Positions 3,675-63,655 of a DNA stretch of 64,000 nucleotides are shown here, piece by piece. Source of the DNA: a virus. Below the pieces are notes generated by a model. It had not been told where the DNA came from. It made no database searches and worked only from the letters and a program-made list of their open reading frames with translations. How positions within the stretch are numbered: position 1 is the stretch's first letter; every line of letters starts with the position of its first letter. The stretch is from IMG/VR virus record IMGVR_UViG_3300010885_015027, positions 1 to 64,000 of that record; one strand, 5' to 3'. The position numbers and the translations under genes are program-made.

Positions 3675-5894
3675 TCAAACAATTAAGTCAATAAATTTTG
3701 ATATCATAGTATTAACTCGTTTCTGTGTGGAGGCCGATTTACAGAAAGTCTCTGCGACAGAAAGAGTTTTTTCTTTTGAATTGTGCGGTTTCGGTTTTTT
3801 GAACATCTCAGTAGAACATATAAATGTAGTATCGAATGATTCTTTATCCACTCGTTCAATCACAATATATTTAGAGTTAAAAGCTTCATGTGTTTTCTTT
3901 CGAAGATAACCGGAATATCGCATATTCTGTATTTCTTCACTAGTGAGGCCCATTTCGGTCAAATATTTTTTCCTTTGATCTTCTGTGATTTCGTACAATA
4001 AATCAGATGTAATTAGAAAATTGATTACTGTGACATCTTTCATTCTAGTCTTAATAATTTTCAAGAAATCCTCAGAAGTGCATCCACTATTATATTCTGA
4101 AAAATAATGATTCAGTTTCGTTTTGGGATCGTGGATAACAATTTTAGATCTATATGAAGGATAGGGATAGCCGTAAGTTTTGGCGTTTTTATATATAACA
4201 GATTTAGCTGGACCTTGGCCGTCGGTGAAATAAACAACATTCACTATTTTCGCAGCACAATCTTCTCTAAATTTTGCCACTAGTGAATCTAGACAGAGAT
4301 GTGTTTCTGATAGGGGAGTTCCTCCTAAACCATACATGTGATTACCTATATGATTCATGAAAATATCAACCATACATTTAAAATTGCTTTCCGACATTCT
4401 AGAACTTAGTAATTCTAATAATCGAAATTTGTCAGTAGTCTCAAAGGTATATTCATTTTTTCCGATATGTGTGTCGAACACGACTTCACAATCTTGTGCA
4501 TCGTACTCGTATTGACGAACTGAATCAAAGAACCCATATAAAACATAAGGAATACCGATCTGTTTACAAAAAAGAATTAATTCTAATGCCTTTGTTTTTG
4601 CTGCACGAAGATATGCAGACATTGAACTAGAAAAATCCATAATGAAAATCAACCCATGGTTTTTTCCATTCGGGCGAACTTCAAAAGTTTTGAATATTTG
4701 ATCGTTATATTTGTAGGAATACAACTTGTTCATATCTAAACTGCCAGTTCTGAACATCATCGTTTTATTATGTTGATCAGCTTTCTTTCGCATTTGGAAT
4801 AGCTGTTTGTGTAAAGAGATGTTATTCTTATGTTCAGTATAGAACGAGGATAACGAGTTGCCAGTCTTACCAAATATTTCGTCTAATTCGGAATCTTCTT
4901 TTATTTCTTTATTTTCTTGACTAGTAGAAAAGATTCTATCAAAATCTTTTTTAATAGATTCAAACGGATAGATAATAGTCCCCAATATGGGTGTAGGCAT
5001 ATCAACATACAAAATTTTACCGACAGATGTATTGACACGATCTGATAGAGAGTTATCTAGATCTCGGAGAGTTTGCGATTTCGATGGAGTGTTTGTAGAT
5101 TCTGTTACAGTTGATGATTCTTTTTGAGTATCGTCATCTACTTTTCTAGAAGTTCTAGCAGAACCGCTCTCAGTGTCTCCAGAATCGTCAGTCGATTCTT
5201 CGGTGGATTCTTCGGTGGATTCTTCGGTGGATTCGTCAGTCGATTCTTCGGTCGATTCTTCGGTCGATTCTTCGTCAGTCGAATCTTCGGTGGATTCTTC
5301 TCCCGATTCCTCTTTCTGAGAAGAGTTATTGCGTTTTCGGTTTTCGTGAAGTTCCGAATCGAAGATTTCAATTGCAATATCAATCACTTCTTTAAAATTA
5401 ACTACAGATTCAATCTTTCGAATATAAGTCTCTTCTCGTTCACTCAGAGACAAAGAAAAGATTCCATTAAATTTGAAATAGACATTCAACCTGTCAATTA
5501 ACGACAGATTCTTGACATCATCTATTACCATTATCTTATTTTCGAGAATCTGTTTATAACCGTGAAAGAAGATTTTCTTCATTCCAGGATAACGTTGTTT
5601 CACAAGAGATTCGATTCTAGCATCTTCGATAATATTAAGATAATCACGAAAAACATCATTCGGTTCTCTCAATTTAAGAGCAGCAATCCATTCGTCAGAA
5701 TTGGTATAGAGAGCGTGGCCGATCTCATGACCAATTAATAATTCAACAATAATATCAGAAAGATTCTCCCAAGTTGGGATAACGAGTACTCGCTTTTGGG
5801 TATCGAAATAAGCAGTCTTCTCAGGCTGCTGGATAACTGTAATGTCTTCGGCAGACATCAATTTCGCGAGATTTTCTTGTACAGTTGTTATCAT
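3675..5894 (-). CDS. CobT-like protein with HExxH metallopeptidase-like domain and vWA domain
   Basis: GHEIGHALYT, NIIEDARIE, MIDAS DFSSSM, GGTPL, FTDG. Confidence 0.85.
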   Translation of the reverse strand: MITTVQENLAKLMSAEDITVIQQPEKTAYFDTQKRVLVIPTWENLSDIIVELLIGHEIGHALYTNSDEWIAALKLREPNDVFRDYLNIIEDARIESLVKQRYPGMKKIFFHGYKQILENKIMVIDDVKNLSLIDRLNVYFKFNGIFSLSLSEREETYIRKIESVVNFKEVIDIAIEIFDSELHENRKRNNSSQKEESGEESTEDSTDEESTEESTEESTDESTEESTEESTEESTDDSGDTESGSARTSRKVDDDTQKESSTVTESTNTPSKSQTLRDLDNSLSDRVNTSVGKILYVDMPTPILGTIIYPFESIKKDFDRIFSTSQENKEIKEDSELDEIFGKTGNSLSSFYTEHKNNISLHKQLFQMRKKADQHNKTMMFRTGSLDMNKLYSYKYNDQIFKTFEVRPNGKNHGLIFIMDFSSSMSAYLRAAKTKALELILFCKQIGIPYVLYGFFDSVRQYEYDAQDCEVVFDTHIGKNEYTFETTDKFRLLELLSSRMSESNFKCMVDIFMNHIGNHMYGLGGTPLSETHLCLDSLVAKFREDCAAKIVNVVYFTDGQGPAKSVIYKNAKTYGYPYPSYRSKIVIHDPKTKLNHYFSEYNSGCTSEDFLKIIKTRMKDVTVINFLITSDLLYEITEDQRKKYLTEMGLTSEEIQNMRYSGYLRKKTHEAFNSKYIVIERVDKESFDTTFICSTEMFKKPKPHNSKEKTLSVAETFCKSASTQKRVNTMISKFIDLIV
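5186..5302 (-). repeat. 12-bp coding tandem repeat (STEE/STDE linker)
   Basis: Repeated GATTCTTCGGT[GC] units. Confidence 0.85.
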
Positions 5895-43972: not shown

Positions 43973-44491
43973 CTACACCGCAATGTTATTTTTGAATATA
44001 ATGTATTTACTATTATCTCTGATAGATGTCTTGTCAAATTGTCCGCTTTTACCATCTATATAGAAACCACTAGGATCGAGTATCTCATTTCTCAAGATCT
44101 CCACCCAACTGTGTGGAATTAATTTGAATTCATTCTCTAATCCATTATCTTGAACCCATAGCTTAATTGATTCCACGGAATCAGGATCGAACCCAGAATC
44201 TATCATTTTTCTTCTGTCAGAATTAGTTAATGCGTCTGGGGTATATTCTGGCGAGTCAGATAGAAACCAACCATTTTGTTTAAATCCATTCTTATCAATA
44301 TATCCAGTTTTGACTATCTCATTATTCATCTTCTTTCTATAGAGAAATTCGGAAAGATCTTTACTGGCTATTCCACAACCACCTCGTATAAAATAATCCT
44401 TGAGATAATCCTCATGCTCATTCCAAAAATCAATTAGATTCTTATTAAATGCAGTATTTTCTTTGAGGAATTGTTTGAAAGATTTAGGCAT
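43973..44491 (-). CDS. putative head-internal protein with transglutaminase/papain-like C-H-D motifs
   Basis: Leader MPKSFKQFLKE; GGCGIAS, HSWVE, ILDP. Confidence 0.6.
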   Translation of the reverse strand: MPKSFKQFLKENTAFNKNLIDFWNEHEDYLKDYFIRGGCGIASKDLSEFLYRKKMNNEIVKTGYIDKNGFKQNGWFLSDSPEYTPDALTNSDRRKMIDSGFDPDSVESIKLWVQDNGLENEFKLIPHSWVEILRNEILDPSGFYIDGKSGQFDKTSIRDNSKYIIFKNNIAV

Positions 44492-44499
44492 ATAAATAT

Positions 44500-44871
44500 T
44501 CAGTTTTTCACAAAAGTAGAAAAGAGATTAATCAATAGTGTTAAGAAAGATAAGCCACCGATGATCATCCACTTAGATTTTTCTAATTCAGTTATTCGTG
44601 TTTCAATTGTCGTCTTTTCGGATTGCATCTTAATTTTTACTTCATCAATTTCTTCCCAAACATATCTAAAATTCGTTTCCGAATCTGTGATTTTTTGTTG
44701 ATGTTGTGATGTGATTAATGTGATATTGTTTATAAGTTCTTGGATCTTATCGTTTGTGGTGTCTAATTTATCGACTAATTTCTGAAATTGTTGAATATCT
44801 TTCTTTATTAATTCAACTTGAACTTTAATTTCTTGGATATCTTTTTCCATTTGTTCTAGACCTATATTCAT
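44500..44871 (-). CDS. coiled-coil protein with C-terminal TM
   Basis: RITELEKSKWMIIGG followed by a hydrophobic tail. Confidence 0.65.
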   Translation of the reverse strand: MNIGLEQMEKDIQEIKVQVELIKKDIQQFQKLVDKLDTTNDKIQELINNITLITSQHQQKITDSETNFRYVWEEIDEVKIKMQSEKTTIETRITELEKSKWMIIGGLSFLTLLINLFSTFVKN

Positions 44872-44878
44872 TATACAC

Positions 44879-45877
44879 CTACTTCGAAAATGCAAGTTTT
44901 CTTTTGAAGATTTTAAATGTTAGAGGTTTTGCGTAAGTGGCAATATTTGCTGTTGAATTCGCAGGGATATCTTCTGTTCGTACTGTCTTCTGATATTTTT
45001 CAATATCTTTTAACAGTTTTTCTATACTATCACCATTTCTAATTAATTTATATTTAATATCTTTCTTATCTGATTTTCCCAAAAGATCATAGTTGAAATA
45101 TTTAACATCATCTAATGATATAGAGTGGTTGAAAATTTTGTATATATCTAGAGACTTTGTCCTAATATAATTCTTAATATTGTCTACACCTTTCACAATT
45201 AAATCTTTATCAGTTAATGTAGTACATTGAATATTTAGCACTGCATGACCGTCTAATGAAAATTTTATATAGCCATCATCATAAGCTGCAAATTTCCCTC
45301 CACTTGTTTTTGAATATTTGTTATAGAGGGAATCATGATTATACCACTCACCATATGCTATTCTCATAGTTTCATCTGGGAGCAACAAAGCACCGTTCGG
45401 TTTAATCCATCCCCAAAATTTATACCAATCACTCATTTCAAATCGTTCTCTAAGTGGTTCGACTTCTTCATGAGACAGAATTAGATTAAAATTTGGTGGG
45501 AACAACAGAGGTAGGATATTTTCATTTGCTTCGGCATTATATGAAATTGTTATGTGTGGTTTGTAAGTATCATAGTCATAAGAAGCACCAGCATCTAATG
45601 CTGATTTATGTATTTCTTCTAATTCGTCTGAAGTCACTTCTAGAACTAAAGCACGACCATAAGTTGCAATAGAAAACTCTTTATAATCTAATATAATATT
45701 AGTCTTGTTTGATGGTAATATTTCTCGTTTAGGATCAACTTTGGAATAAGTAGTTGTTATGTGTAAATCTTTTGTATCTATCGGTTCGATAATTTCAGAA
45801 TCAATTATCCATTCAGCCACCATCTCTGCCGATGCCTGAGTTAATTTGAAACTGCCATAAACGCCTTCTAGTATCAT
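44879..45877 (-). CDS. acb1: Acb1 (T4 57B-like) 2H phosphodiesterase fused to a GWI.P.G domain
   Basis: LHITTTYS and GASYDYDTYKPHITISYN match the two HxT motifs of Acb1 as recalled. Confidence 0.85.
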   Translation of the reverse strand: MILEGVYGSFKLTQASAEMVAEWIIDSEIIEPIDTKDLHITTTYSKVDPKREILPSNKTNIILDYKEFSIATYGRALVLEVTSDELEEIHKSALDAGASYDYDTYKPHITISYNAEANENILPLLFPPNFNLILSHEEVEPLRERFEMSDWYKFWGWIKPNGALLLPDETMRIAYGEWYNHDSLYNKYSKTSGGKFAAYDDGYIKFSLDGHAVLNIQCTTLTDKDLIVKGVDNIKNYIRTKSLDIYKIFNHSISLDDVKYFNYDLLGKSDKKDIKYKLIRNGDSIEKLLKDIEKYQKTVRTEDIPANSTANIATYAKPLTFKIFKRKLAFSK

Positions 45878-46263
45878 TACATTTCCTTTAATTTTTCTAA
45901 TAAATTGTTATCTATCGATATTGATGATGGTGTTATTGTTCTACCATTTATTCCTATTATTTCATGTGGCATCAATGATAGATATAATAATATAGTTGCT
46001 AATGCATTCCACGAAGAATCGGAAAATTCGGTGAATAGAATCTTGGAAGTCGCTTCTCCAGGAAAAACATTATGGATGCATATTATATGATTTATCAGAA
46101 TACGAATATTAATTTTCTTGTTATTTAAGTATTTATATAACAGTGTCTTTAGGTATTTGATTCTAAGATAATCTTCTTCGAATTCTAAAAACGAAGCGCA
46201 GCCAGGATTTCGGTAAACACTGGCTGCGTATAATTTAACATTATCTTTTGTAAGATTGATCAT
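45877..46263 (-). CDS. conserved T4-like hypothetical protein
   Basis: LT.DN..LYA...Y.NP.C...EFEED..RIKY..ILINHII..NVF. Confidence 0.75.
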   Translation of the reverse strand: MINLTKDNVKLYAASVYRNPGCASFLEFEEDYLRIKYLKTLLYKYLNNKKINIRILINHIICIHNVFPGEATSKILFTEFSDSSWNALATILLYLSLMPHEIIGINGRTITPSSISIDNNLLEKLKEM

Positions 46264-46294
46264 TATTAGAGACTAGGATTGTTAATGACTATCA

Positions 46295-47491
46295 TTACGA
46301 TTTCTCTAAAGATTTAAACATATCATCATATCTATCTTTATAATACGATGTTCGATTAATCATTTGTTCTCCTGCCGGAAATCTTGATTTGATGATTTCT
46401 GTAGCATAATAGAATGCAGCGAAACCATATTGTGCAATTATTGGTTCTGCTTCAGGAAAAGGTTCTTGTGATATATATTGAATATAAGTTATGATATAAG
46501 CAATGTCATTGGATTTAACTAGTTCTGATTCAACGGTCTTTCTATATTGCGCAGAGAGAAAATAAGGTTTAATAAAATTGATAATTCTTATTGATGGATC
46601 GGAGTGCTCGTCACTTAAGACATATACAATCAATCTGTCAATATTTGAAAGCATAAAATCGACACCATCTTTAAATACAATTCCATCTGGTAGCAATAGT
46701 TGATATGTAAGTATGTTTTCGATTCTTGTATCTACAGACATCGAATTCGTTAGTAAAAACTTTTGTAAAGTTTTATGTAATGAGATATCATCGTTATATT
46801 CTCGTTCAGTAATAGGGTTCCTTTGCCTTCGCATAATAAATTTGAGGAATAATCGATCAGGAGATGAATCTTTAATCGCTTTAATTTTGTCTATGAACGG
46901 TTTATAACTTCGAATAATATCATCAAATTTCAGTTTAGTTTGAATTCCAAATTCGTATTCTGTTATTTGTTTATCTTTCTTATCAAAAAAATTAAGTAAG
47001 TCGTCCATATCACCAGGGGAAGTTGGTATTGTTATTGCCCATTTTTCTTTCTTATCATTTAAACAAAAAATTAGATTAATACCACCAGAATAAAAATATT
47101 GATTAAAATAATCGTGTTCTCTTTTTGAGACACACCAGTCCGTCCCAGTTCCATGATAACAACTAGATTCTTTATCTAGAGGAATTATAATATTCCAACC
47201 AGCAGATCTTTGTTCGGGTGTTGTTATATCAATCGATTTACCAGAATCTTTTTTTACGGAAGATTTAGTAACTTCGACCTGTTTTTTATCCACAAATTCT
47301 TTAAAATTAGAGAATGGTTTCTTGGCCCAAAAATCAATATTCTTCTCTTCACCAGCTAATTTTTGTTTGTTAGAGAGTTCCTTGAACTTCTTAATATAAT
47401 CATCAACTTGAGCCTTGTCGATTCCAGAAGCAACGAATTTCAAGGCTGTTGTTTTGTAATCTTCATCGATAAAGGATTTAAATGATAGCAT
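46295..47491 (-). CDS. putative head-internal protein, paralog A (GTDWC domain plus helical repeat tail)
   Basis: MLSFKSFIDE leader; SCYHGTGTDWCVS; FPEAEPIIA/RFPAGE repeats. Confidence 0.7.
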   Translation of the reverse strand: MLSFKSFIDEDYKTTALKFVASGIDKAQVDDYIKKFKELSNKQKLAGEEKNIDFWAKKPFSNFKEFVDKKQVEVTKSSVKKDSGKSIDITTPEQRSAGWNIIIPLDKESSCYHGTGTDWCVSKREHDYFNQYFYSGGINLIFCLNDKKEKWAITIPTSPGDMDDLLNFFDKKDKQITEYEFGIQTKLKFDDIIRSYKPFIDKIKAIKDSSPDRLFLKFIMRRQRNPITEREYNDDISLHKTLQKFLLTNSMSVDTRIENILTYQLLLPDGIVFKDGVDFMLSNIDRLIVYVLSDEHSDPSIRIINFIKPYFLSAQYRKTVESELVKSNDIAYIITYIQYISQEPFPEAEPIIAQYGFAAFYYATEIIKSRFPAGEQMINRTSYYKDRYDDMFKSLEKS

Positions 47492-48671
47492 TGTATTTCT
47501 CCAAAATTTCGTTGCCAGTTACCCTAGTATTCCCCGAGACCTCAGTATTCCCCGAGACCAATGCGTTGCCAGAGACCCGAGCGTTCCCAGAGACTTTAGA
47601 GTTCCCAGAGACTTTAGAGTTCCCAGAGACTCGAGCGTACCCAAAGACCTGAGCGTACCCAAAGACCTGAGCGTCATCAAGGACTATAGTGTATCCAAAG
47701 ACCTTAGCCTTCCCAAAGACCTGAGATCTCCCAGCGACCCCAGCGGATCCAGAGACCTCTGCGTTCCCAGAGACCTCTGCGAGCCCATAGATCTCTGCGA
47801 ACCCAAATACCTGAGAACTCCCAGAGACCAATGAATTCCCAGAGACCCGAGGGTTCCCATAGACCTCAGCTTTCCCAGATACAATAGCGTAAGGACCAAC
47901 GTAAGCAGTATCAGAAACCTTAGCAGTATTCTCGACCCAGCCTCCTCCGTTGGGATGACGGTGCCAAGTCTCAAGAGTAGCGTCAGGAAACTTAGTTTTC
48001 AACTCTTCTAACTTCGCAAGATTTATCTTGTTAAATTTAAGCGTTTTAATTTTGTCTATGTACGGTTTATAACTTCTAAAAATATCAGCGAATTCCAGCT
48101 CAGTTTGTTTTTCGAATTCTAATTCTGATATTTGTTTATCATTAATATCATAAAAAATAATTGTTTTTTCGTTAGATTGTATTTCTATTGCCCATTTTTC
48201 TTTCTTTTTCTTGTCATTCAAACAAAAAATTAAATTAGAATTATACTCATAAAAATATTGATTAAAGTAATCATATTTTCTTTTAGCAACACACCAATCT
48301 GACATACAGTCTAAGTTTCCATAATAAACACTTGCTTTTTTATCTAGTGGAATTATAATATTCCAACCAGCAGATCTTTGTTCGGGTGTTGTTATATTAA
48401 ATGAAGTACCTTGATCTTTCTTCTCAACTTTCTTGTTCGCAACAACAGCAACTTCTTTTTCTTTTGTATCTACGAATTCTTCAAATTCAGAGAACGTCTT
48501 CTTAGCCCAAAAATCAATATTCTTCTCTTCACCAGCTAGTTTTTGTTTGTTAGAAAGTTCCTTGAACTTCTTAATATAATCATCAACTTGGCCTTTATCA
48601 ATACCAGAAGCAACGAATTTCAAGGCTGTTGTTTTATAATCTTCATCGATAAAGGATTTAAATGATAGCAT
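47478..48671 (-). CDS. putative head-internal protein, paralog B, fused to the hexapeptide-repeat module
   Basis: N-half paralogous to 46295; C-half FPDATLETWH..VSGNA repeats. Confidence 0.8.
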   Translation of the reverse strand: MLSFKSFIDEDYKTTALKFVASGIDKGQVDDYIKKFKELSNKQKLAGEEKNIDFWAKKTFSEFEEFVDTKEKEVAVVANKKVEKKDQGTSFNITTPEQRSAGWNIIIPLDKKASVYYGNLDCMSDWCVAKRKYDYFNQYFYEYNSNLIFCLNDKKKKEKWAIEIQSNEKTIIFYDINDKQISELEFEKQTELEFADIFRSYKPYIDKIKTLKFNKINLAKLEELKTKFPDATLETWHRHPNGGGWVENTAKVSDTAYVGPYAIVSGKAEVYGNPRVSGNSLVSGSSQVFGFAEIYGLAEVSGNAEVSGSAGVAGRSQVFGKAKVFGYTIVLDDAQVFGYAQVFGYARVSGNSKVSGNSKVSGNARVSGNALVSGNTEVSGNTRVTGNEILEKYNAII

Positions 48672-48706
48672 TATTGATTTTTCTCCATTTATATTTTCCG
48701 GACAGA

Positions 48707-50713
48707 TTAATACTGTGTAGTATCTGTTACTTCAATTGGATTAATCGAGTGAACAACATACATCGGCATTTCTAAAGCAACAATTTCTTGTACTTCTTCA
48801 ATCGATTCTGCATGAATAATAGAAGATAAAAATCTTCTGGTTGATGGTTTGAATAAGATTACATTGAATACTTTACCTGATTCGAATTCTTCATCAAGAC
48901 CTTCCATTTCGTCTTCCATCACATCAGGTTCTTCTTCGTTATCTTCTGCTCCCACTTCAAAATCAACATCAGTCAAAGCAACAGATTCTCCGTCTTCGAA
49001 ATAAACCATAATCTCAGCAGAAACAGTTACTCCAGTTTCTCCTTCTGAAATTGAAGTCTTCATAAACATATCGCCTTCTAATTTCTCTTCAACAGTTTCG
49101 TCTGCAGAAAATACTGATAAGACTGCATTTCCACCTTCGATAGAATCTAACGGAATATCACCATCAGTTAATTTGTCAAAACTTAATCCAATAGTTGAAA
49201 GAAGAGTTTTAATCTCAGTCTCGGCTTCTTCTAGAGTAGCAAATGGATTAGATGATAAGACTTCTAGACCATTAACAACATCAGTAATTGTACTAATTTC
49301 AGATAAATTTACCGACTCATTAAATTCTTTAAATGTTTTCATTTCTTCCTCATTTGCTATGGTTGTAATTCCATCCCAAGAATCGTAACCTTGTAACCAG
49401 GCTTCCTTGGTAAAATAATGGTTAGAATATTCTTCTGGAACTTCTCGTTTCATCTCTGTTTCAGCAGATTTTTTTCCGGCATAAGTAGCTTCTCGGATCG
49501 CTTTTGCCGCTGGTAACATTCCTTTCATTTCTTTCATGACATTGATTCTGATTCTATTGTATAGAGTAGGATCTTTCTTGATATAAGAGATTAATCTATC
49601 TAATAAATCAAATAAGAGATTTCTCAGATAAGGAACTGTTCCGGCTACTTTCTTATTGGTCAAGGCTTTCTTTGCTCTACTGTAGAGCTTCTGATCAACT
49701 AAACCTAGTTTCAAAAGCATATCCAACTTAACATCAATAATTTCGTCAGAAGTAGCTTTCTTTTTAGAATTCTTAGGAGCTTTTGCTTCTGAGATAATCG
49801 ATTCGGAAACCGATGTTACTGTGGCATTTTTAGAAACTAGTGATGCTAAATTTCTATTGTTAACAATACTATTCATTAAATCTAATAGAAAATCAATTAA
49901 TGCTCTTTGATCTAATTCGCCTGTTGCTTGATTTTCGTCCGAACCAGTTTTAATGTAATTAGTTAGGGTGTTCATAATTCTGGTTGTATCTGCAGGAGAA
50001 TTAGAAAACGGGACGATTAATCTAGGTCTAATAACAGATTTCAAAACTGCCAATTTCTTTTTGATCGTCGGATCAGTAACAGGTTCTTCGGTTTCTTCTG
50101 AATCTGAACTAACTGCTTTAGAGATTATCTCTGCTAGAGTTTCTAAATCATAAGCTTTATCATCAATTGCAACGGAAGTTTTATTGACAGATACTTTCAC
50201 AGATCCTGTTTCAGAATTCCAATCGATAGATAAGGTATCACCATCAACATCGATCTCTTTTCTGGTTAATTTTTTTGTATCTGCAGGAATAGCTTTAATT
50301 GCGGTGGAAACAGAATCTTGTGTTAACTCTTCTGAAATATAATCCTGAAGAATTGCTTCAACAGCACCACGCAAAGCTTCCGGATTAGTCGCAACACCTT
50401 TGATTTCTGTATCATTCACTTTAACAGAAGACTCATAACCATTCCAATTAATGATTATTTTATTGTCCTCTGTTCCGATTTCATAATCAGTTAACTTTTC
50501 AACATCTAATGGAATAGAATTTGTAATCTTTTCAATATCTGTGTCGGAAATTTGTTTTTTTGTGATTAACGAAGCTAGAATTAAATTCTTAGATAAAATA
50601 TCTATTGATTCAATTAAATGGTTATCTGCCACACCAAATACTTTAGATTCTTCAGTCAATAAAGACTTATTGTGGATATTGATTTCTTTTAAAATGTTCG
50701 AAAATGTTTGCAT
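48707..50713 (-). CDS. acidic putative head-internal polyprotein
   Basis: MQTFSNILKE leader, internal MKTFKEFNES, many [IL]xE sites. Confidence 0.65.
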   Translation of the reverse strand: MQTFSNILKEINIHNKSLLTEESKVFGVADNHLIESIDILSKNLILASLITKKQISDTDIEKITNSIPLDVEKLTDYEIGTEDNKIIINWNGYESSVKVNDTEIKGVATNPEALRGAVEAILQDYISEELTQDSVSTAIKAIPADTKKLTRKEIDVDGDTLSIDWNSETGSVKVSVNKTSVAIDDKAYDLETLAEIISKAVSSDSEETEEPVTDPTIKKKLAVLKSVIRPRLIVPFSNSPADTTRIMNTLTNYIKTGSDENQATGELDQRALIDFLLDLMNSIVNNRNLASLVSKNATVTSVSESIISEAKAPKNSKKKATSDEIIDVKLDMLLKLGLVDQKLYSRAKKALTNKKVAGTVPYLRNLLFDLLDRLISYIKKDPTLYNRIRINVMKEMKGMLPAAKAIREATYAGKKSAETEMKREVPEEYSNHYFTKEAWLQGYDSWDGITTIANEEEMKTFKEFNESVNLSEISTITDVVNGLEVLSSNPFATLEEAETEIKTLLSTIGLSFDKLTDGDIPLDSIEGGNAVLSVFSADETVEEKLEGDMFMKTSISEGETGVTVSAEIMVYFEDGESVALTDVDFEVGAEDNEEEPDVMEDEMEGLDEEFESGKVFNVILFKPSTRRFLSSIIHAESIEEVQEIVALEMPMYVVHSINPIEVTDTTQY

Positions 50714-50741: not shown

Positions 50742-53700
50742 TTATACAGACAAAAGTCTAATATTCGTTATCTTACAACCACTGGCAAGTTTCTTGCCTT
50801 TATTGGAGAACACGAAACAGATTTTCTTACCGTCTTTCTTACTATAAGTTGTCGTCTCAGAAATAATTTTAATCGATTCTTCTAGTTTAGATCCAGGAGT
50901 TTTATTGAAAATCGATTCGTTAATTCCATATTCCTCAATATAAGGAGCAATTCTTTTCATAATATCGGCAGAAACATTAGGAACATCTTTTCCAAAAATT
51001 TTCAATAATTCTTGAGTTTCTGGAACATAATTTGCTAATTTTTTTGGAGAAAAACCATCTATATCTTTTACATTATCTAGACGATCCAAAGCTTTTATAT
51101 TCTTAACAGAAATTGGAGCAGCCTTCAAATTAGTAAAATATGTATCGTGATCAACTTTTACTTTATCAGGAGAGTCAGTATGTTCACTAAATGCCTTCGA
51201 TAATATCTTGACAGTTGTTGCAGTTTCTTTTCCAAATTCTTTGCTTAATGATTTAAATGTAATAGAAGCTGGTCCGTCTTCCATAACGTCATGCAATATT
51301 GCTGCTAAAAGAGTTGGTTCATCTGTGAAACCATAATTCATAGCAGTATCAAATACTTCCATTGGATGTATGATGTATTTCGATCCAGTTGATTTTCTGA
51401 ATTGCCCCTCGTGAGCCATATCAGCTAATTTATATGCAGCTTCAATTTTTGGATATAACTTAGGGAATTTCTGTTTTGCTCTTTCTAAAATCGTTTTGAT
51501 GGTAGAATCAACATCAGTTTTTTCACGAATACTGTCAGAAATAATTTTAATCGATTCTTGAATCGGATCTTCTGAATAATTGTAATAATCGAATATTGCT
51601 TCTGCATTATGAGTAGAAACTGAGACCTTATCTTGAATCCAAGCAGGTAGTTCAGTCTTATTCTGGATAATATCCAAAGTCTTCATAGATAAATCTGCAA
51701 TCTTTTTTAATTGTCCAGTGATCATCTCGATTTCGTAATCATCTTCTTCGTTCAAAAGCTTTCTCCTTGTAGCACTAAGTTTTAATATGAAAGCACCTGG
51801 ATCTGTTACTTCTATGCTTTCGTTGTTTCCAGATTTTCCACGCCATTCAAAAGAATATTCTACCGCAGAAAGATGTTTGTTGACTATGCTTCCAATCGCT
51901 TTTTGTAAATTAATATCATTTACGTTCCACTTGATAGTATTAAATCTTAATTCGTTGAATTGTTTATCTAGTAACCAACGGACCCAACCTTTCTTAGTAG
52001 CATCAGTTTCTGTCGGTTTTCTACCCAATGATGTATTAGGATTCATTTCTGCTATTCTTCTGAGTATAGAAGTATGAGTATTATCTAGTTCGTTTGGTCT
52101 TATGGATTCCCCTTGTGGTGTAATCCAACCCCCGTCTGTGTATCCGAACATATGCGCTTCTGCCAGATATTTTCTGGCTTTCTTTGCAAGATCAGCATCT
52201 GTGCTATACCATGTCTTTCCTTTTGTTAAGAAAGAATTTACTCTTGCAAAAGCCCAAGCTGATTGCGGTGCACCTGGTCTGTGGCCAGTTACCCATGCAG
52301 CCATTCCACGATTATAGACTTGTTTTAAGATAGAATAAGGAACACCGGAGGCTTTTGACTTCTTCTGCAAAGCAGTTATAGATCTTTTCTTTTCTTCATC
52401 TAACATAAGATTTCTGAACAGTTTTTTAATTGCAGAAGGCTCTTTAAGAGAATTTCTGAGACGTCTAAGAGAGTTGTCTATTTTTACTGTTTCTCTTCTA
52501 TTTTGTTTGTTATCTTTTGTTTTACTTCTCAAATCCCAAGTTATTTCTTCCGGAAGGCGTATATTCTCGCCAAAAACATCTTTTTTAGTTCCACGAACTA
52601 TACTGTTAATAATATTTTCCACGCCCATCACAATACGATCTTCACTATTCGGAAGATACCCATATATATCTAATTTTTTGGGGGTTTTAGATTCTATAAA
52701 AAATTTTAACCATCCAGCATTTAATGCTTGATATTCGTACAATTTTCCGGGGAGAATATTCGCATGCGAATATTCATCTTCTTTACTATCTTTTTGTTTT
52801 TTTGTCGGGAAAACTAAGTTTCCTTCTAGATCTATCCAACCCCAATATTCATAATATTTTCCCATCTCAAAAGATTCTTTTGTTACAAATTTTGCCCTGT
52901 ATTTCTTGTTATATTTAGATGGTCTAGTCGCTTTCGAATCACCAGGAACTTTATCTGCCTTTTTATATTCATCTTTTGTGAAAGGATAAGTTCCTAAGCC
53001 CTTCCAGAAAGAAGATCTTTTCTTAGAAGTTGATTTAGATAATTTTGCGAAATATTTCTTAGGTTCGGCATCTTCGTCCATATAGTTCTGAAGATAGCTC
53101 TTCACTAAATCAAAATACTTAATCTTCTTACCACCAACAGTTATCAATAAATCAGCAGGAATTCCTGCTGCATCTGAGAAGCTATCTTTATCGTCAGCTT
53201 TAACAGCAGATCGCAAATCTGATGCAGAAGATAATCTTTCTGTAGGTCTCAGAATAATATTTGAGAAGATATATCTCTTTCCATCTTTTAATTCTTTATC
53301 ATTATAATCTTTCAATAGTTGCAATACATATTGTTCATCAGTATAACAGATAAGTGTTATATCATCTTTCTTGTATTTTTCGTAAACATATGTTGCTAGA
53401 GTTAACCAAGTTTGTTCGAAAACAAAATGATCCTTGATGTTTGGATATAGAGTATTAATGACGATTTCTTTAACATCAGAAGGGAGCGGATCTTTTTTAC
53501 CTATCGTACTTTTATTTGTTCCAACATACCAAGCATCTAGATCGGAATCAGCAGCCATCTGTTTCCAAGCTGCAATATGACCCTTATGTGGAGGATTGAA
53601 TCTACCAAACATTACACCAACAGCGAAAGATCCTTCTAGATCTTCTGTTATGGATTCTGTTTTTGCAAAATTACCTTGCAAACCTGATATAATGAATTTT

Positions 53701-54707
53701 CCAGTTATTTTTAGGATCTCGCCATTCTCTCTTTTAATCATCAATCCTTCTTGATCGGATCCCTTTCCTAATTTGGATCCAACGGAATTCATGATGTATG
53801 TCCCAAGAGTAATTGTTGCGTAATACAGAATGTAATCCCTAATTTGATCTGGTGTTAAACCTGTCTTATCACCAGCATCTATCTCTTGATAGACTTTCTT
53901 AGTGAAGATAACTGCCCTATCATTTTTCTTTGGGATTTGATCTATGTCTAAAATCCAATTTTTAAGAGATTTGGATACACCATTCAGAGTCAAATTTGTA
54001 TCTAATGTTGGAGTAAAATTAAGATTTGCAGTCTTCTTAACTTCTGGATTACCTAACACAACAAAGTCGTCTTCGTTGTTCTTTTTCTTTAATAGAACTG
54101 TTAAGGCTTTTGCATATGCATTAATAACATCTACATTGTAAGGATAATCTGATATTTCTCTTTTCTTATTACCAGTTTTTTTAACAATTTCGTCTGAATA
54201 TTTAATGATTCTTAGACCATGTATGGCAATAAAATTCTTGATGTTATATGTTATCTGGTTGGATTTGCCATTTTCAACAAATTCTACATTTAAGATAAGA
54301 TTGGGATTCTTCGTCAAACCTAATTTATCTAAACTCTTCATAGTGGAATCTATTGTCGGATTCAATAAATTGAGAAGAATTGACGCACTCCTTTGTAGTT
54401 CAGGCCTCAGTCGACTTGCGTCTAAGTTATCGACAGTGATTCCTGTAAAATCTTCATCTGCTTGGGTTCCACGATCCAAAGCAAATTCATATTTTCCAGC
54501 GGCATTCTTTACTAATCTCACGGATAGATTTATTCCATCCAACTTCACCCAAGCAGATCCAGGTTTACCAGCAGAACCCTTTTCAATATATTTTTTGACT
54601 TCGTCGAATAAATTTAGAAATTCTCGGCCATTATTGGCGACATCAAATGGGTGGAGAACATGGCCTCCTGCACCACCTTCTGTTAAAAAAGATTTAAAAG
54701 ATATCAT
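50742..54707 (-). CDS. 1321-aa multidomain protein: N-terminal domain, HIGH nucleotidyltransferase, two GWI domains, conserved phage domains, RelA/SpoT-type HD hydrolase
   Basis: MISFKSFLTE; FGRFNPPHKGH; VYNRGMAAW..WAFARVNSF; AHEGQFRK..YIIHP..LHDVMED..K.LDRLDN. Confidence 0.85.
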   Translation of the reverse strand: MISFKSFLTEGGAGGHVLHPFDVANNGREFLNLFDEVKKYIEKGSAGKPGSAWVKLDGINLSVRLVKNAAGKYEFALDRGTQADEDFTGITVDNLDASRLRPELQRSASILLNLLNPTIDSTMKSLDKLGLTKNPNLILNVEFVENGKSNQITYNIKNFIAIHGLRIIKYSDEIVKKTGNKKREISDYPYNVDVINAYAKALTVLLKKKNNEDDFVVLGNPEVKKTANLNFTPTLDTNLTLNGVSKSLKNWILDIDQIPKKNDRAVIFTKKVYQEIDAGDKTGLTPDQIRDYILYYATITLGTYIMNSVGSKLGKGSDQEGLMIKRENGEILKITGKFIISGLQGNFAKTESITEDLEGSFAVGVMFGRFNPPHKGHIAAWKQMAADSDLDAWYVGTNKSTIGKKDPLPSDVKEIVINTLYPNIKDHFVFEQTWLTLATYVYEKYKKDDITLICYTDEQYVLQLLKDYNDKELKDGKRYIFSNIILRPTERLSSASDLRSAVKADDKDSFSDAAGIPADLLITVGGKKIKYFDLVKSYLQNYMDEDAEPKKYFAKLSKSTSKKRSSFWKGLGTYPFTKDEYKKADKVPGDSKATRPSKYNKKYRAKFVTKESFEMGKYYEYWGWIDLEGNLVFPTKKQKDSKEDEYSHANILPGKLYEYQALNAGWLKFFIESKTPKKLDIYGYLPNSEDRIVMGVENIINSIVRGTKKDVFGENIRLPEEITWDLRSKTKDNKQNRRETVKIDNSLRRLRNSLKEPSAIKKLFRNLMLDEEKKRSITALQKKSKASGVPYSILKQVYNRGMAAWVTGHRPGAPQSAWAFARVNSFLTKGKTWYSTDADLAKKARKYLAEAHMFGYTDGGWITPQGESIRPNELDNTHTSILRRIAEMNPNTSLGRKPTETDATKKGWVRWLLDKQFNELRFNTIKWNVNDINLQKAIGSIVNKHLSAVEYSFEWRGKSGNNESIEVTDPGAFILKLSATRRKLLNEEDDYEIEMITGQLKKIADLSMKTLDIIQNKTELPAWIQDKVSVSTHNAEAIFDYYNYSEDPIQESIKIISDSIREKTDVDSTIKTILERAKQKFPKLYPKIEAAYKLADMAHEGQFRKSTGSKYIIHPMEVFDTAMNYGFTDEPTLLAAILHDVMEDGPASITFKSLSKEFGKETATTVKILSKAFSEHTDSPDKVKVDHDTYFTNLKAAPISVKNIKALDRLDNVKDIDGFSPKKLANYVPETQELLKIFGKDVPNVSADIMKRIAPYIEEYGINESIFNKTPGSKLEESIKIISETTTYSKKDGKKICFVFSNKGKKLASGCKITNIRLLSV

Positions 54708-55315: not shown

Positions 55316-56083
55316 TTAAATTATTGTGAGGATTTGGGAGGAATTAAGATCAGGTGTTGATTTACAGTCTACTACATACCATGCATTCGTGTCAAGATGG
55401 ATCTTTAGATAATGATTCAGAGCGGTATCGATGTTAATGTTACGAGCGTGCATTTCAGTACCCATCCACAGCGGGACAGTATGTTGTGTATGTCCGACAA
55501 CCTGAAAAAGTCCTTCGATCAATTCTAGATTGGTCCAATCTATCCAAAGAAATCCACCGTGTTTCTGACGGCCACCACGATCCTGACCAGCATGAAGCAG
55601 CGGATGGTTCGAGTCGATGTCGACGTCTAGTGAATCAAAAAAATCTACTAGCGAATCGTGCTTGGTCGCATCAGTAAATACGGTAAAATGACTAGGATGA
55701 ATACCAGCATGAGAAAAGAGAACAGACTTTCCAGCAATCTTTTGTAATTCATAGAGTTTAATTTTTTTTCGAAATTCCTTTGAAAGATTCTTTTTGATAT
55801 ATTCGTGATTGTTACTAGAGTATCCAGAACAAAGATTATCTTTGTTTGTTGACAGATAATGGATATCATGATTGCCCATCAAGAAGGTATAGCGAGGATT
55901 ATCTGCATTCTCATTCAAGAAGGCGACGGTATATTTAAATTGATCTTGATGATAAAATGAATCAAAATAATCACCAAGAAAAATCACTTCTTCGGCAGTT
56001 TTGATATCTTCCCGGTCTAGAAGAATATCTAACTTAAAAATCTGTTGGTGGATATCTGGTATAACAATCTTATGAGTGGACAT
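55316..56083 (-). CDS. calcineurin-like metallophosphoesterase
   Basis: DIH, GDYFD, GNHD, SHAG, VGHT, IDT. Confidence 0.88.
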   Translation of the reverse strand: MSTHKIVIPDIHQQIFKLDILLDREDIKTAEEVIFLGDYFDSFYHQDQFKYTVAFLNENADNPRYTFLMGNHDIHYLSTNKDNLCSGYSSNNHEYIKKNLSKEFRKKIKLYELQKIAGKSVLFSHAGIHPSHFTVFTDATKHDSLVDFFDSLDVDIDSNHPLLHAGQDRGGRQKHGGFLWIDWTNLELIEGLFQVVGHTQHTVPLWMGTEMHARNINIDTALNHYLKIHLDTNAWYVVDCKSTPDLNSSQILTII

Positions 56084-61768: not shown

Positions 61769-62245
61769 TCATATATTTTTAATACTATTCTGTTTTTTTC
61801 CGAAAGCGCCTCTGAAGCTGCTTGTTTTTAACCAGTTAAGAAAATCGTTCACCATCTGAAGATCTTGTTTGAATGGTGTACCATCTTTATATTTATCAAT
61901 AATCTTGGATCGATCCATCGCTCCACCTAGTCCACCGGCACCGACTGGCACGCCGTGAATGAAGTCAAAATAATCGTCATTAGACAGCTTGTTTTCAATA
62001 CGCTCCGCCGCAGCGCTAACCTTTTTATAATCAGAATATGATTTGTTCCGAGGAATACTCGATGGATGAGGTACATACCCTCCTGTCCTTTCGATCATGT
62101 CTTCAATACTTGAGTTACCATCGTCATCGTCATCTTCTTCTTTCATAACTTCTTCAACAATCGATCTGATATAAGCTTTGAGATCTGTATCGGTCGATTC
62201 TGTGATTACCTTGAGATAATCTTTTCTGAAATTTTCTAGGTTCAT
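61769..62245 (-). CDS. putative head-internal protein (MNLENFRKDYLKVITES family)
   Basis: Leader identical in three tandem genes. Confidence 0.7.
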   Translation of the reverse strand: MNLENFRKDYLKVITESTDTDLKAYIRSIVEEVMKEEDDDDDGNSSIEDMIERTGGYVPHPSSIPRNKSYSDYKKVSAAAERIENKLSNDDYFDFIHGVPVGAGGLGGAMDRSKIIDKYKDGTPFKQDLQMVNDFLNWLKTSSFRGAFGKKQNSIKNI

Positions 62246-62254
62246 ATAGGATGC

Positions 62255-63121
62255 CTAAGTGTTGACTGCCCAATTCAAGAATTTGCTTGCGTCATCAAGA
62301 TTAGTAATTGATTTATAGTCGAAAAGTATTTGTTCCTGATCATCTTCATCGCCGTCAATGAAGTCATTATATTTTTCCTTAGATATCTTGTTACTAAGAG
62401 TCTTTAATGCAACTTCAATCTCGTCAAGATTGAAGTCCATCATTTCCTCCGACGATCCTCCAATCATGTCAAGAATGTTGACATCATTTGAGTCATAGCC
62501 TGTCACCTTTTCGAGAGCGGCTATAGTGAACGGGATCGGCCCTGGATAAGTATCTGCAAAAAGATCGCCATCATGTGCTTCAGTGAGTCTCGATCTCAAC
62601 TTAGATAAGACGGTCTCATCTTTAGGATTTTTTTCTAGAGCATTTTCCATTCTATCTAGATCGGATTCTTTCGCGGACATCTTTAGTGATAACTTGTTTT
62701 TTCCTGATAGTGTATTTACTGCTTTAAGAATAAAAGGATAATTTCCAGCACTAATAGTATGTTTCTCAGAAACATTATAATTTTTAGACTGTACTCCTTC
62801 TCCAAGTGTGTCTTTAGTGAGTTTTTTCAAGTTATCTAAGACTTTCTGTAGAGCATTTTCCATTCTATCTAGATCGGATTCTTTCGCGGACATATTTATT
62901 GATAACTTCTTTTTTCCTGATTGTGTATTTACTGCGTTAAGAATAAGAGGATAATTTCCAGCATGAATATTATGTTTCTTAGAAACATTATAATCTTTAG
63001 ACTTTACTCCTTCTGTAAGTGTGTCTTCTACGACTGATCTGACATATTTTCTAAGATTCGCATCAACTGTCGATTCTGTGATTACCTTGAGATAATCTTT
63101 TCTGAAATTTTCTAGGTTCAT
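62255..63121 (-). CDS. putative head-internal protein with internal duplication
   Basis: Same leader; EGV.SK.YNVS.KH...SAKESDLDRMENAL x2. Confidence 0.7.
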   Translation of the reverse strand: MNLENFRKDYLKVITESTVDANLRKYVRSVVEDTLTEGVKSKDYNVSKKHNIHAGNYPLILNAVNTQSGKKKLSINMSAKESDLDRMENALQKVLDNLKKLTKDTLGEGVQSKNYNVSEKHTISAGNYPFILKAVNTLSGKNKLSLKMSAKESDLDRMENALEKNPKDETVLSKLRSRLTEAHDGDLFADTYPGPIPFTIAALEKVTGYDSNDVNILDMIGGSSEEMMDFNLDEIEVALKTLSNKISKEKYNDFIDGDEDDQEQILFDYKSITNLDDASKFLNWAVNT

Positions 63122-63250
63122 ATATACTCCTGTTATTTTTTATTTTTTTTAAACTTCACTATCAAAAACTATTTTATAAGTTTTTTGTTGGAAACCAGCT
63201 TTTTCTGCATCAACTGGTATTACTAGGATGCTTGTGTGATGTGAAATTGT

Positions 63251-63655
63251 CTAGTTATCCATTAAATAATTTAAGAAATCGTTTGCTAGGTTAAGATTGT
63301 CAATATTATTATATTTTGAAAGTAATTTTTTCTGGGCCTGATATTGCATGCCGCCAATGAATTCCTTATATTCATCCTTCATCTCTTTTTTAGCAGCTTT
63401 CAATGCGGCTTCAATCTTGACGAGATCATATTCCGTAGGAATCATAGAGACGTTAATAAATGCACCTGGCATCATAACATCGACAGCGGCAGCAGTTTCT
63501 TTACCTATCTTTGCGTATCCTGGTTTATCGGCCGCATGCATACGACCTTCTCTCATTACTTCTTCAACAATCGATCTGATATAAGCTTTGAGATCTGTAT
63601 CGGTCGATTCTGTGATTACCTTGAGATAATCTTTTCTGAAATTTTCTAGGTTCAT
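63251..63655 (-). CDS. putative head-internal protein
   Basis: Same leader; first 34 aa identical to the 61769-62245 protein. Confidence 0.7.
   Translation of the reverse strand: MNLENFRKDYLKVITESTDTDLKAYIRSIVEEVMREGRMHAADKPGYAKIGKETAAAVDVMMPGAFINVSMIPTEYDLVKIEAALKAAKKEMKDEYKEFIGGMQYQAQKKLLSKYNNIDNLNLANDFLNYLMDN

Follow-up and report, generated by a model that had tools for sequence, protein, structure and literature searches.

How does an enzyme domain come to stand inside a phage gene with the same 25 nucleotides (nt) on either side of it? The question is raised by a gene for a 1321-residue protein in a 64,000-nt stretch of viral DNA (the window), which comprises positions 1-64,000 of the virus record IMGVR_UViG_3300010885_015027 (76,732 nt in all). 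Within this gene an exact direct repeat, TCAGAAATAATTTTAATCGATTCTT, brackets a module predicted to be a RelA/SpoT-type HD hydrolase. We consider it likely that the repeat is the duplicated target of an in-frame insertion of this HD cassette into a mosaic T4-like phage protein, and a substrate for precise loss of the cassette.

An exact repeat on both sides of an HD module

The 25-mer occurs twice in the window, at 50857-50881 and at 51535-51559, which confirms a preliminary description of this DNA that had noted an exact 25-bp direct repeat encoding ESIKIIS twice, in frame around the HD module. No further match with three or fewer mismatches is present in the window (expected number 0, from 100 shuffles), and across the whole record the 25-mer likewise has just two occurrences. 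The copies are spaced by 678 nt, that is, by 226 codons, and share the frame of one minus-strand open reading frame (ORF) of 1321 amino acids. On the coding strand both read xAA GAA TCG ATT AAA ATT ATT TCT GAx, which yields the peptides PIQ-ESIKIIS-D at copy A and KLE-ESIKIIS-E at copy B, and the edges of the repeat are sharp. The C-terminal part of the gene, in the order of the protein, is as follows.

51558..51782, minus strand: conserved helical segment, residues 976-1050, ending in ...FDYYNYSEDPIQ (from comparison of relatives and a structural model)
51535..51559, minus strand: repeat copy A, the first in the protein, (Q)ESIKIIS(D), exact 25-mer; strain-variable, with IIS, IVS or SSS
50882..51534, minus strand: inserted segment with the HD hydrolase module; the HD_4 match covers 51009-51437
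50910..50918, minus strand: third, partial copy, GAATCGATT, the ESI of ...YGINESIFN; the same 9 nt as in the full copies
50857..50881, minus strand: repeat copy B, (E)ESIKIIS(E), exact 25-mer, start of the C-terminal tail; invariant among the alleles listed
50745..50879, minus strand: conserved basic C-terminal tail, ESIKIISETTTYSKKDGKKICFVFS...; also the end of the HD-less relatives P0004-P0013, there with a single joint and varied modules before it

The third copy lies 13 codons upstream of copy B and uses the Ser codon TCG, as do both full copies, and the remaining three ESI tripeptides of the gene are written in different codons (Ser TCC or AGC, Ile ATA). That the three ESI sites around the HD module have GAATCGATT in common, with other codons elsewhere, therefore argues for shared descent and not for convergence of the peptide. 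An AlphaFold model of residues 973-1321, of moderate confidence (mean pLDDT 68), places copy A in a low-confidence helix preceding the all-helical HD domain and has copy B lead into the first beta-strand of a beta-hairpin tail (model strand 309-316). The repeat had been described as encoding a linker; this does not hold for copy B, which is the start, with its first strand, of the conserved C-terminal tail and no neutral linker.

The record is a metagenome assembly, and contigs of run X8 break at or beside both repeat copies, which would suit a repeat created by misjoining two strains, or two genes that share the 25-mer. In X8 the contigs of the HD module and those upstream also differ in depth, a measure by which the parts of a gene cannot be ranked. 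However, a single 6684-nt contig of run X1 spans the HD module together with both copies, and contigs of runs X2 and X3, which come from other studies, run through each copy between the HD module and the adjoining flank, at 95-99% identity. The same layout, with the modules in the same order, is found in at least 20 independently assembled full-length proteins (ENA, JGI, Logan), one of them on a 167-kb contig, and the ORF is continuous across both joints. Thus, an assembly artefact is extremely improbable. Runs of 18 studies contain the window stretch; almost all carry the label of a freshwater, lake or river metagenome.

Filled and empty sites among relatives

Three 90% clusters of the protein database carry the HD module, namely P0001 (5 members), P0002 and P0003 (40 members), and eight related clusters lack it (P0004-P0009, P0011 and P0013), as do the contigs L001, L002 and L003. 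The joint peptide ESI(K/N)IIS is present two or three times, on both sides of the HD module, in the HD-bearing alleles (P0001, P0002, P0003 and those members of clusters P0001 and P0003 that were listed) and once in the HD-less alleles. Retention of the domain without the repeat in all relatives, which the preliminary description had named as the outcome that would speak against its proposal, is therefore not what the family displays, and alleles with one copy and no HD domain, for which it suggested a search, do exist (P0009, L001 and others).

The clearest empty site is that of P0009, which is 86% identical just upstream and reads ...YSEDNIQ-ESIKIIS-ETITYSKKDGKK at the junction. Except for two strain substitutions (N/P and I/T), this corresponds to the left flank of copy A continued by the right flank of copy B. 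Deeper HD-less relatives (P0004-8, P0010, P0011, P0013 and L002/L003) have a single ESVEIISE that opens the same basic tail, with varied modules before it. That is, an HD module at the tail junction is limited to one shallow group, and the single-copy junction is found in the deeper relatives (55-76% identity). Since the deeper relatives have a single motif at the start of the tail, we infer that the single-copy state is the older one and that the HD module arrived as a target-duplicating insertion into the tail start.

The opposite direction, with the HD-bearing form ancestral among the close relatives and the single-copy P0009 and L001 as precise deletions between the repeats, appears quite unlikely to us. 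It would account well for P0009, which apart from its two substitutions matches the product expected of a deletion between copies A and B and has both flanks of the HD-bearing lineage (86% and 77% identity), and also for L001, which upstream of the joint is nearer to the window than other HD-bearing alleles are. An unfilled site and a precise deletion look the same in sequence, but the single-copy junction in all deeper relatives and the confinement of the HD module to the shallow group speak against this direction. Moreover, L001 also differs from the window in its tail and downstream gene, which indicates a replacement and not a clean deletion.

Scans of IMG/VR proteins gave few useful loci and no other HD-bearing one, and a metagenome scan with an alignment of the C-terminal region returned, among the matches listed, one true relative (L013) and three unrelated HD proteins. 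A degenerate DNA pattern for ESIKIIS(D/E) had 21 matches in IMG/VR, all in unrelated proteins or non-coding frames.

Signs of exchange at the joint

The comparison of the HD-less IMG/VR contig L001 with the window locates a breakpoint at the motif itself. Over the 200 nt up to the motif the two are about 97% identical, they share ATTATTTCTGA, and from the next base onwards they are unrelated. Over residues 854-1050, L001 is 93-94% identical to the window, versus 83-89% for the HD-bearing P0002 and P0003; for the helical segment alone (residues 976-1050) the values are 94% versus 83-87%. Among HD-bearing alleles the HD module itself is 92-95% identical. Hence the presence or absence of the HD module is incongruent with the phylogeny of the flanks.

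The joint copies co-vary. ESIK is paired with ESIK in the cluster of the window and ESIN with ESIN in the P0002 and P0003 clusters, a pattern that calls for gene conversion, for parallel change, or for separate insertions in each of which the target present locally was copied. At the same time copy A has drifted, to IVS in P0299, P0301 and runs X2, X3 and X8 and to SSS in many P0003-type sequences, while copy B is constant. This is the behaviour expected of a vestigial duplicate beside a structural original.

Copy number changes as well. A full third copy (...KESINNISETTTYSYSE-KESINIISETTTYS...) is present in P0002 and P0311 at the position equivalent to 50910-50918, and absent from P0003. P0311 and P0003 belong to the same 90% cluster and yet differ by the presence versus absence of this 17-residue extra copy.

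Other cassettes occupy the same junction. The tail of L013 contains, at the C-terminal junction, an inserted WGWI-type module (of the type found at about residues 604-770 of the window protein), flanked by a 60-nt direct repeat of its own (L013:3169-3228 and 3736-3795, 85% identity) that encodes EEKIEEKIVKKDKKY twice. A nucleotidyltransferase module that occupies the pre-tail junction in P0011 is at the N-terminus in P0013. Two distant family members have comparable repeats elsewhere: in P0012 an exact 13-residue peptide repeat (residues 733-745 and 930-942) surrounds a 197-residue segment, and in P0010 identical 17-mers (residues 71-87 and 220-236) lie in tandem WGWI modules. One contig of run X8 joins 51783 to 52150 and thereby skips exactly 366 nt, or 122 codons, corresponding to WGWI module 2; it is a weak hint, because the shorter side measures just 29 nt and the contig is the only one. 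Together, the filled and empty sites and the breakpoint at the motif support the earlier proposal that the repeat is a recombination joint for in-frame gain and loss of modules.

Possible routes of insertion and loss

The HD segment would have been inserted right after the first seven codons of the conserved tail (ESIKIIS), and these codons would thereby have come to lie on both its sides. Two routes could have led there. Either a circular or concatemeric donor carrying one copy of the joint was integrated by a single crossover, or a staggered template switch occurred at microhomology during the highly recombinogenic replication of a T4-type phage. Both would give the same product. Once present, the identical copies could pair with each other, which would result either in precise deletion of the cassette or in mutual conversion. 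T4-type phages replicate by recombination. For RB49 and phi1, recombination between short repeats that flank dispensable ORFs leads to deletions and to encapsidated mini-circles (PMC2839356).

Several observations weigh against an insertion with target duplication. A donor of the HD module was not found: among 1.8 billion representatives, the closest HD proteins outside this gene are 36-42% identical, and none exceeds 42%. The K/N co-variation of the joint copies is known at the protein level only. Runs X2, X3 and X8 have T>C at 51542, within copy A, so that the two copies agree at all 25 positions in this strain only. The deletion joint, a skip of 678 nt, is absent from the contigs of 4 runs, contigs being an assembly product that drops rare variants; the search for single-copy alleles suggested earlier succeeded among the relatives and was negative for these runs. 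Finally, [LI]xE-S[IV], the motif of the joint, is over-represented throughout the family and may be maintained by selection acting on the peptide, which could for instance be a protease site. A second HD or tail copy that could have been a paralogous source is likewise absent from the 76.7-kb record, itself 42% complete.

A possible peptide signal at module borders

The enrichment of the joint motif leads to an alternative that we regard as unlikely, namely that the repeat is a selected peptide element without a role in recombination. It would be a cleavage or junction signal of the prohead protease ([LI]xE followed by S[IV]) that frees the HD module in the capsid, and the identity of the nucleotides would follow incidentally from a recent duplication or conversion. 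The sequences IQE|S and LEE|S indeed fit the [LI]xE preference of T4 gp21 (PMC9026906), and a gp21-type protease is encoded in the same record. [LI]xE sites are conserved in all aligned relatives at residues 10 (in the leader), 850, 887, 1051, 1259, 1264 and 1284. Among 33 non-redundant family members we counted 39 ES[IV] (16.9 +/- 4.0 after shuffling) and 11 [LI]xES[IV] (2.0 +/- 1.5), both above all 200 shuffles, although these counts take in homologous positions and are hence non-independent and overstated. In P0001, P0009 and P0015 most of the ES[IV] and [LI]xES[IV] sites lie at module borders, and in P0015 the HD module, an unrelated one, is flanked by ESVD on either side.

However, selection on a 7-residue peptide cannot explain identity at every synonymous site or the sharp edges of the repeat, and in other strains copy A has been able to change to IVS or SSS. 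It also leaves the empty sites, the change in copy number and the different 60-nt duplication of L013 unexplained. The peptide and recombination readings are not mutually exclusive. The motif may be a shared junction motif of the family, perhaps a gp21 cut site, and such a protease-site role does not compete with recombination, because peptide constraint cannot explain the synonymous identity, the empty sites and the copy-number change.

We retain target-duplicating insertion as the likely explanation and put forward, tentatively, an extension that would unite both roles. Capsid-delivered polyproteins in T4-like phages of freshwater and marine bacteria might constitute a protein-level integron, with [LI]xE-S[IV] as both the prohead-protease cut site at which each enzyme is set free in the head and, by way of its conserved codons, the short-homology joint of the cassettes. 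If so, cassettes such as the alarmone hydrolase, nucleotidyltransferases, WGWI modules, kinases, peptidases and superoxide dismutases (SODs) would be inserted, duplicated, permuted and excised in frame, and co-infecting phages could rapidly reshuffle the counter-defence payload that they inject.

The HD hydrolase module

The module matches Pfam HD_4 (PF13328) over residues 1091-1233 with 44.4 bits (cut-off 27.2) and phrog_990 with an E value of 6e-24. Among PDB sequences, the 226-residue insert matches Rel/RelA hydrolase domains (E 5e-13) as well as small alarmone hydrolases (SAHs) and Mesh1 (E 7e-9 to 3e-4). Column-by-column alignment with the Rel structures 7oiw, 5xnx and 8acu recovers its motifs AHEGQFRK, YIIHP, LHDVMED and DRLDN, and the columns H..GQ.RK, YI.HP, LHD..ED and DRL.N are at least 90% conserved in 101 aligned homologues. 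The preliminary description had recognized these motifs as fitting SpoT/Mesh1-like hydrolases, and the Pfam and PDB matches and the retention of all catalytic motifs bear it out. By homology, the module is predicted to be a RelA/SpoT-family HD 3'-pyrophosphohydrolase for (p)ppGpp-like alarmones.

A search with the module against the 1.8 billion representatives gave 12,762 matches, the best of them free proteins of 170-210 residues. With free small proteins as best matches, at no more than 42% identity, the module is thus of the SAH type without an identifiable donor. Whereas SAHs are free-standing single domains, the HD domain here occupies about residues 1059-1276 of 1321, and it would be freed as a single domain only if the chain were cut at the flanking [LI]xE sites. 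We reject a transposon or a homing element as the origin of the insert: there is no opposite-strand ORF longer than 42 amino acids inside it, and terminal inverted repeats are lacking. G+C content at third codon positions is 0.18 in the insert versus 0.25 in the gene, a slight difference that says little about foreign origin.

Free phage alarmone hydrolases of the RelA/SpoT family neutralise all tested toxSAS toxins (PMC7229694). Judged by its homology, the HD module would remove alarmones of the (p)ppGpp or (p)ppApp type as infection starts; its fusion to a protein with a leader like the T4 capsid-targeting sequence (CTS) suggests that it acts at DNA entry. Candidate substrates are ppGpp, ppApp, NADPH and pyrophosphorylated tRNA.

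The mosaic protein and its modules

Upstream of the helical segment, the protein consists of further modules, several of which vary among relatives.

50742..54707, minus strand: gene of the 1321-residue mosaic ('polyvalent') protein including the stop codon; one ORF with the Pfam matches CTP_transf_like, DUF5824 and HD_4
54678..54707, minus strand: 10-residue leader MISFKSFLTE, resembling the T4 capsid-targeting sequence (aromatic residue at 4, F7, L8, E10)
53643..54677, minus strand: N-terminal domain, residues 11-355; a gene of its own in the distant relative L011 and missing from P0009
53028..53642, minus strand: HIGH-motif nucleotidyltransferase module, GRFNPPHKGH (CTP_transf_like and phrog_3041)
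52398..52898, minus strand: WGWI-type module 1, about residues 604-770; presence varies among relatives
52149..52397, minus strand: DUF5824 module (Pfam PF19141, 59.9 bits, residues 775-839)
51783..52148, minus strand: WGWI-type module 2, residues 854-975 (from comparison of relatives)

The N-terminal domain has no Pfam match and no significant match among PDB sequences (best E 0.25). The HIGH motif (residues 366-401) scores 21.6 bits against CTP_transf_like, for which the cut-off is 21, and the cytidyltransferase family phrog_3041 is matched with an E value of 6e-24; over the protein as a whole, PHROGs report a cytidyltransferase and a metal-dependent phosphohydrolase, in agreement with Pfam. 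WGWI module 1 is missing from P0003, P0005-8 and P0009 and has another module in its place in P0004, and DUF5824 is the best-conserved block across the protein family. The single polypeptide thus combines a nucleotidyltransferase, DUF5824, an HD domain and at least three unassigned modules, as is typical of polyvalent proteins, and its architecture varies among relatives, some of which join DUF5824 to M48 peptidase, Zeta/AAA kinase or Cu/Zn SOD domains. The DUF5824 family is abundant in freshwater metagenomes; a full-text literature search for DUF5824 found no mention.

Modules of this protein are also found in other genes. In L011 (4815-7098) the N-terminal domain (381 amino acids) and the HIGH nucleotidyltransferase (378 amino acids) are separate adjacent genes, and thus modules of the window protein occur unfused too. 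Within the window, a 332-residue protein (44879-45877) matches phrog_755 ('RNA ligase', E 8e-25) with its N-terminal 143 residues, and its part encoded at 45002-45454 matches the WGWI module of the 1321-residue protein (E 2.7e-9). Different genes thus share WGWI as a cassette.

Leader, prohead protease and genome context

The window is a T4-like replication region with a gp43-type polymerase, a gp41-type helicase, gp46/47 and a UvsW-like helicase, and the source record is a fragment, with an estimated completeness of 42%, from a T4-like phage (myophage) of fresh water. The leader of T4 reads MKTYQEFIAE. For T4 IPIII, leader positions 4 and 7 matter for capsid targeting, and 8 and 10 for gp21 processing (PMC9026906); MISFKSFLTE has F4, F7, L8 and E10 at these determinants. 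The gp21-type prohead protease of the same record (Peptidase_S77, 110.8 bits) is encoded outside the window, 12.5 kb off, at G000:C1:67206-67655. With a T4-like leader and a gp21-type protease at hand, packaging and delivery are reasonable to assume: the 1321-residue protein probably enters the prohead by means of its leader and is delivered with the DNA.

Similar leaders are found on four more genes on the minus strand at 43973-50713, namely MPKSFKQFLKE, MLSFKSFIDE (twice) and MQTFSNILKE. With the gene of the 1321-residue protein, five adjacent genes thus have CTS-like leaders, and the four form a putative head-targeted block beside gp46/47.

Relation to known systems

Polyvalent phage proteins, CTS-bearing internal proteins of T4, phage alarmone hydrolases and modular shuffling at short repeats are already known. 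In the literature searched, we found no HD alarmone hydrolase as a cassette of a polyvalent or internal-head-type protein, no capsid-targeting leader on a 1321-residue enzyme chain, and no domain that had been inserted in frame at a recurrent coding joint with duplication of the target.

The closest parallel in mechanism is the shuffling of PeSL elements in T4-type phages (Arbiol et al. 2010, PMC2839356; PMC4122927). There, too, short repeats flank a dispensable unit, and close relatives either have or lack this unit, with the difference bounded exactly by the repeats. When the two repeats recombine, which takes no dedicated recombinase, a deletion arises together with a circle that could re-insert. 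PeSLs, however, are intergenic cassettes of an early promoter and a stem-loop terminator that flank ORFs, whereas here a 25-nt repeat surrounds a domain inside a gene, with both copies coding and in frame, so the resemblance is one of mechanism only. Similarly, the glycine-rich motifs of the T-even gp38 adhesins (PMC3157838) are short conserved coding motifs that delimit exchangeable segments, and their swaps are in frame. Unlike in the present case, gp38 exchanges short recognition loops within one domain, and its motifs form the structural core; here enzyme domains of 120-230 residues are concerned, and the insertion site is duplicated. If our interpretation is right, multi-effector phage proteins diversify by in-frame moves of domains at short coding joints that leave a duplicated target behind, and the modular shuffling of intergenic T4 PeSLs would extend to the level of protein domains.

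In composition, the protein resembles the polyvalent proteins (Iyer et al. 2017, PMC5512222), which combine many unrelated effector and enzyme domains in variable order and for which delivery together with the DNA is predicted. HD hydrolase and NMNAT-type modules did not come up in a text search of that paper, whose one passage on T4-like phages states that their Alt-type ADP-ribosyltransferases do not belong to genuine polyvalent proteins (PMC5512222). The packaging route predicted for polyvalent proteins is through MuF or association with the portal (PMC5512222), while the protein described here has a T4-like capsid-targeting leader. In this respect it is closer to T4 IPI-III and Alt (PMC9026906, PMC3012670), with their 10-residue leader (aromatic residue at 4, F7, I/L8, E10) and gp21-type protease, and also in its location within a cluster of variable genes with the same leader, for which a counter-defence role is expected. 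Unlike the small, single-function internal proteins of T4, it is a 1321-residue enzyme chain with possible internal cleavage sites.

With respect to the enzyme, the counterparts are the stand-alone hydrolases of the Salmonella phages PVP-SE1 and SSU5 (PMC7229694), phage HD proteins of the RelA/SpoT family that neutralise toxSAS toxins; we propose the same counter-defence logic for the present module. Those enzymes, about 180-200 residues long, are free and are produced after infection, in contrast to a fused and putatively pre-packaged cassette. A capsid-borne alarmone hydrolase could blunt defences of the stringent-response or toxSAS type before any phage gene is expressed.

Neighbouring genes

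Two tandem paralogs lie at 46295-47491 and 47478-48671. Their first 26 residues are identical and their N-terminal halves of about 200 residues are similar (phrog_17056/28193); the C-terminal halves are unlike, one of them with VSGN-type hexapeptide-like repeats. At 61769-63655, on the minus strand, three adjacent genes share the same 18-residue start, MNLENFRKDYLKVITEST, which contains an ITE site; they form a paralog family with a shared leader. Just upstream of the gene of the 1321-residue protein, at 55316-56083, a 255-residue protein is encoded that has weak PHROG matches to a NinI-like Ser/Thr phosphatase and to the phosphatase part of RNA-ligase-type proteins.

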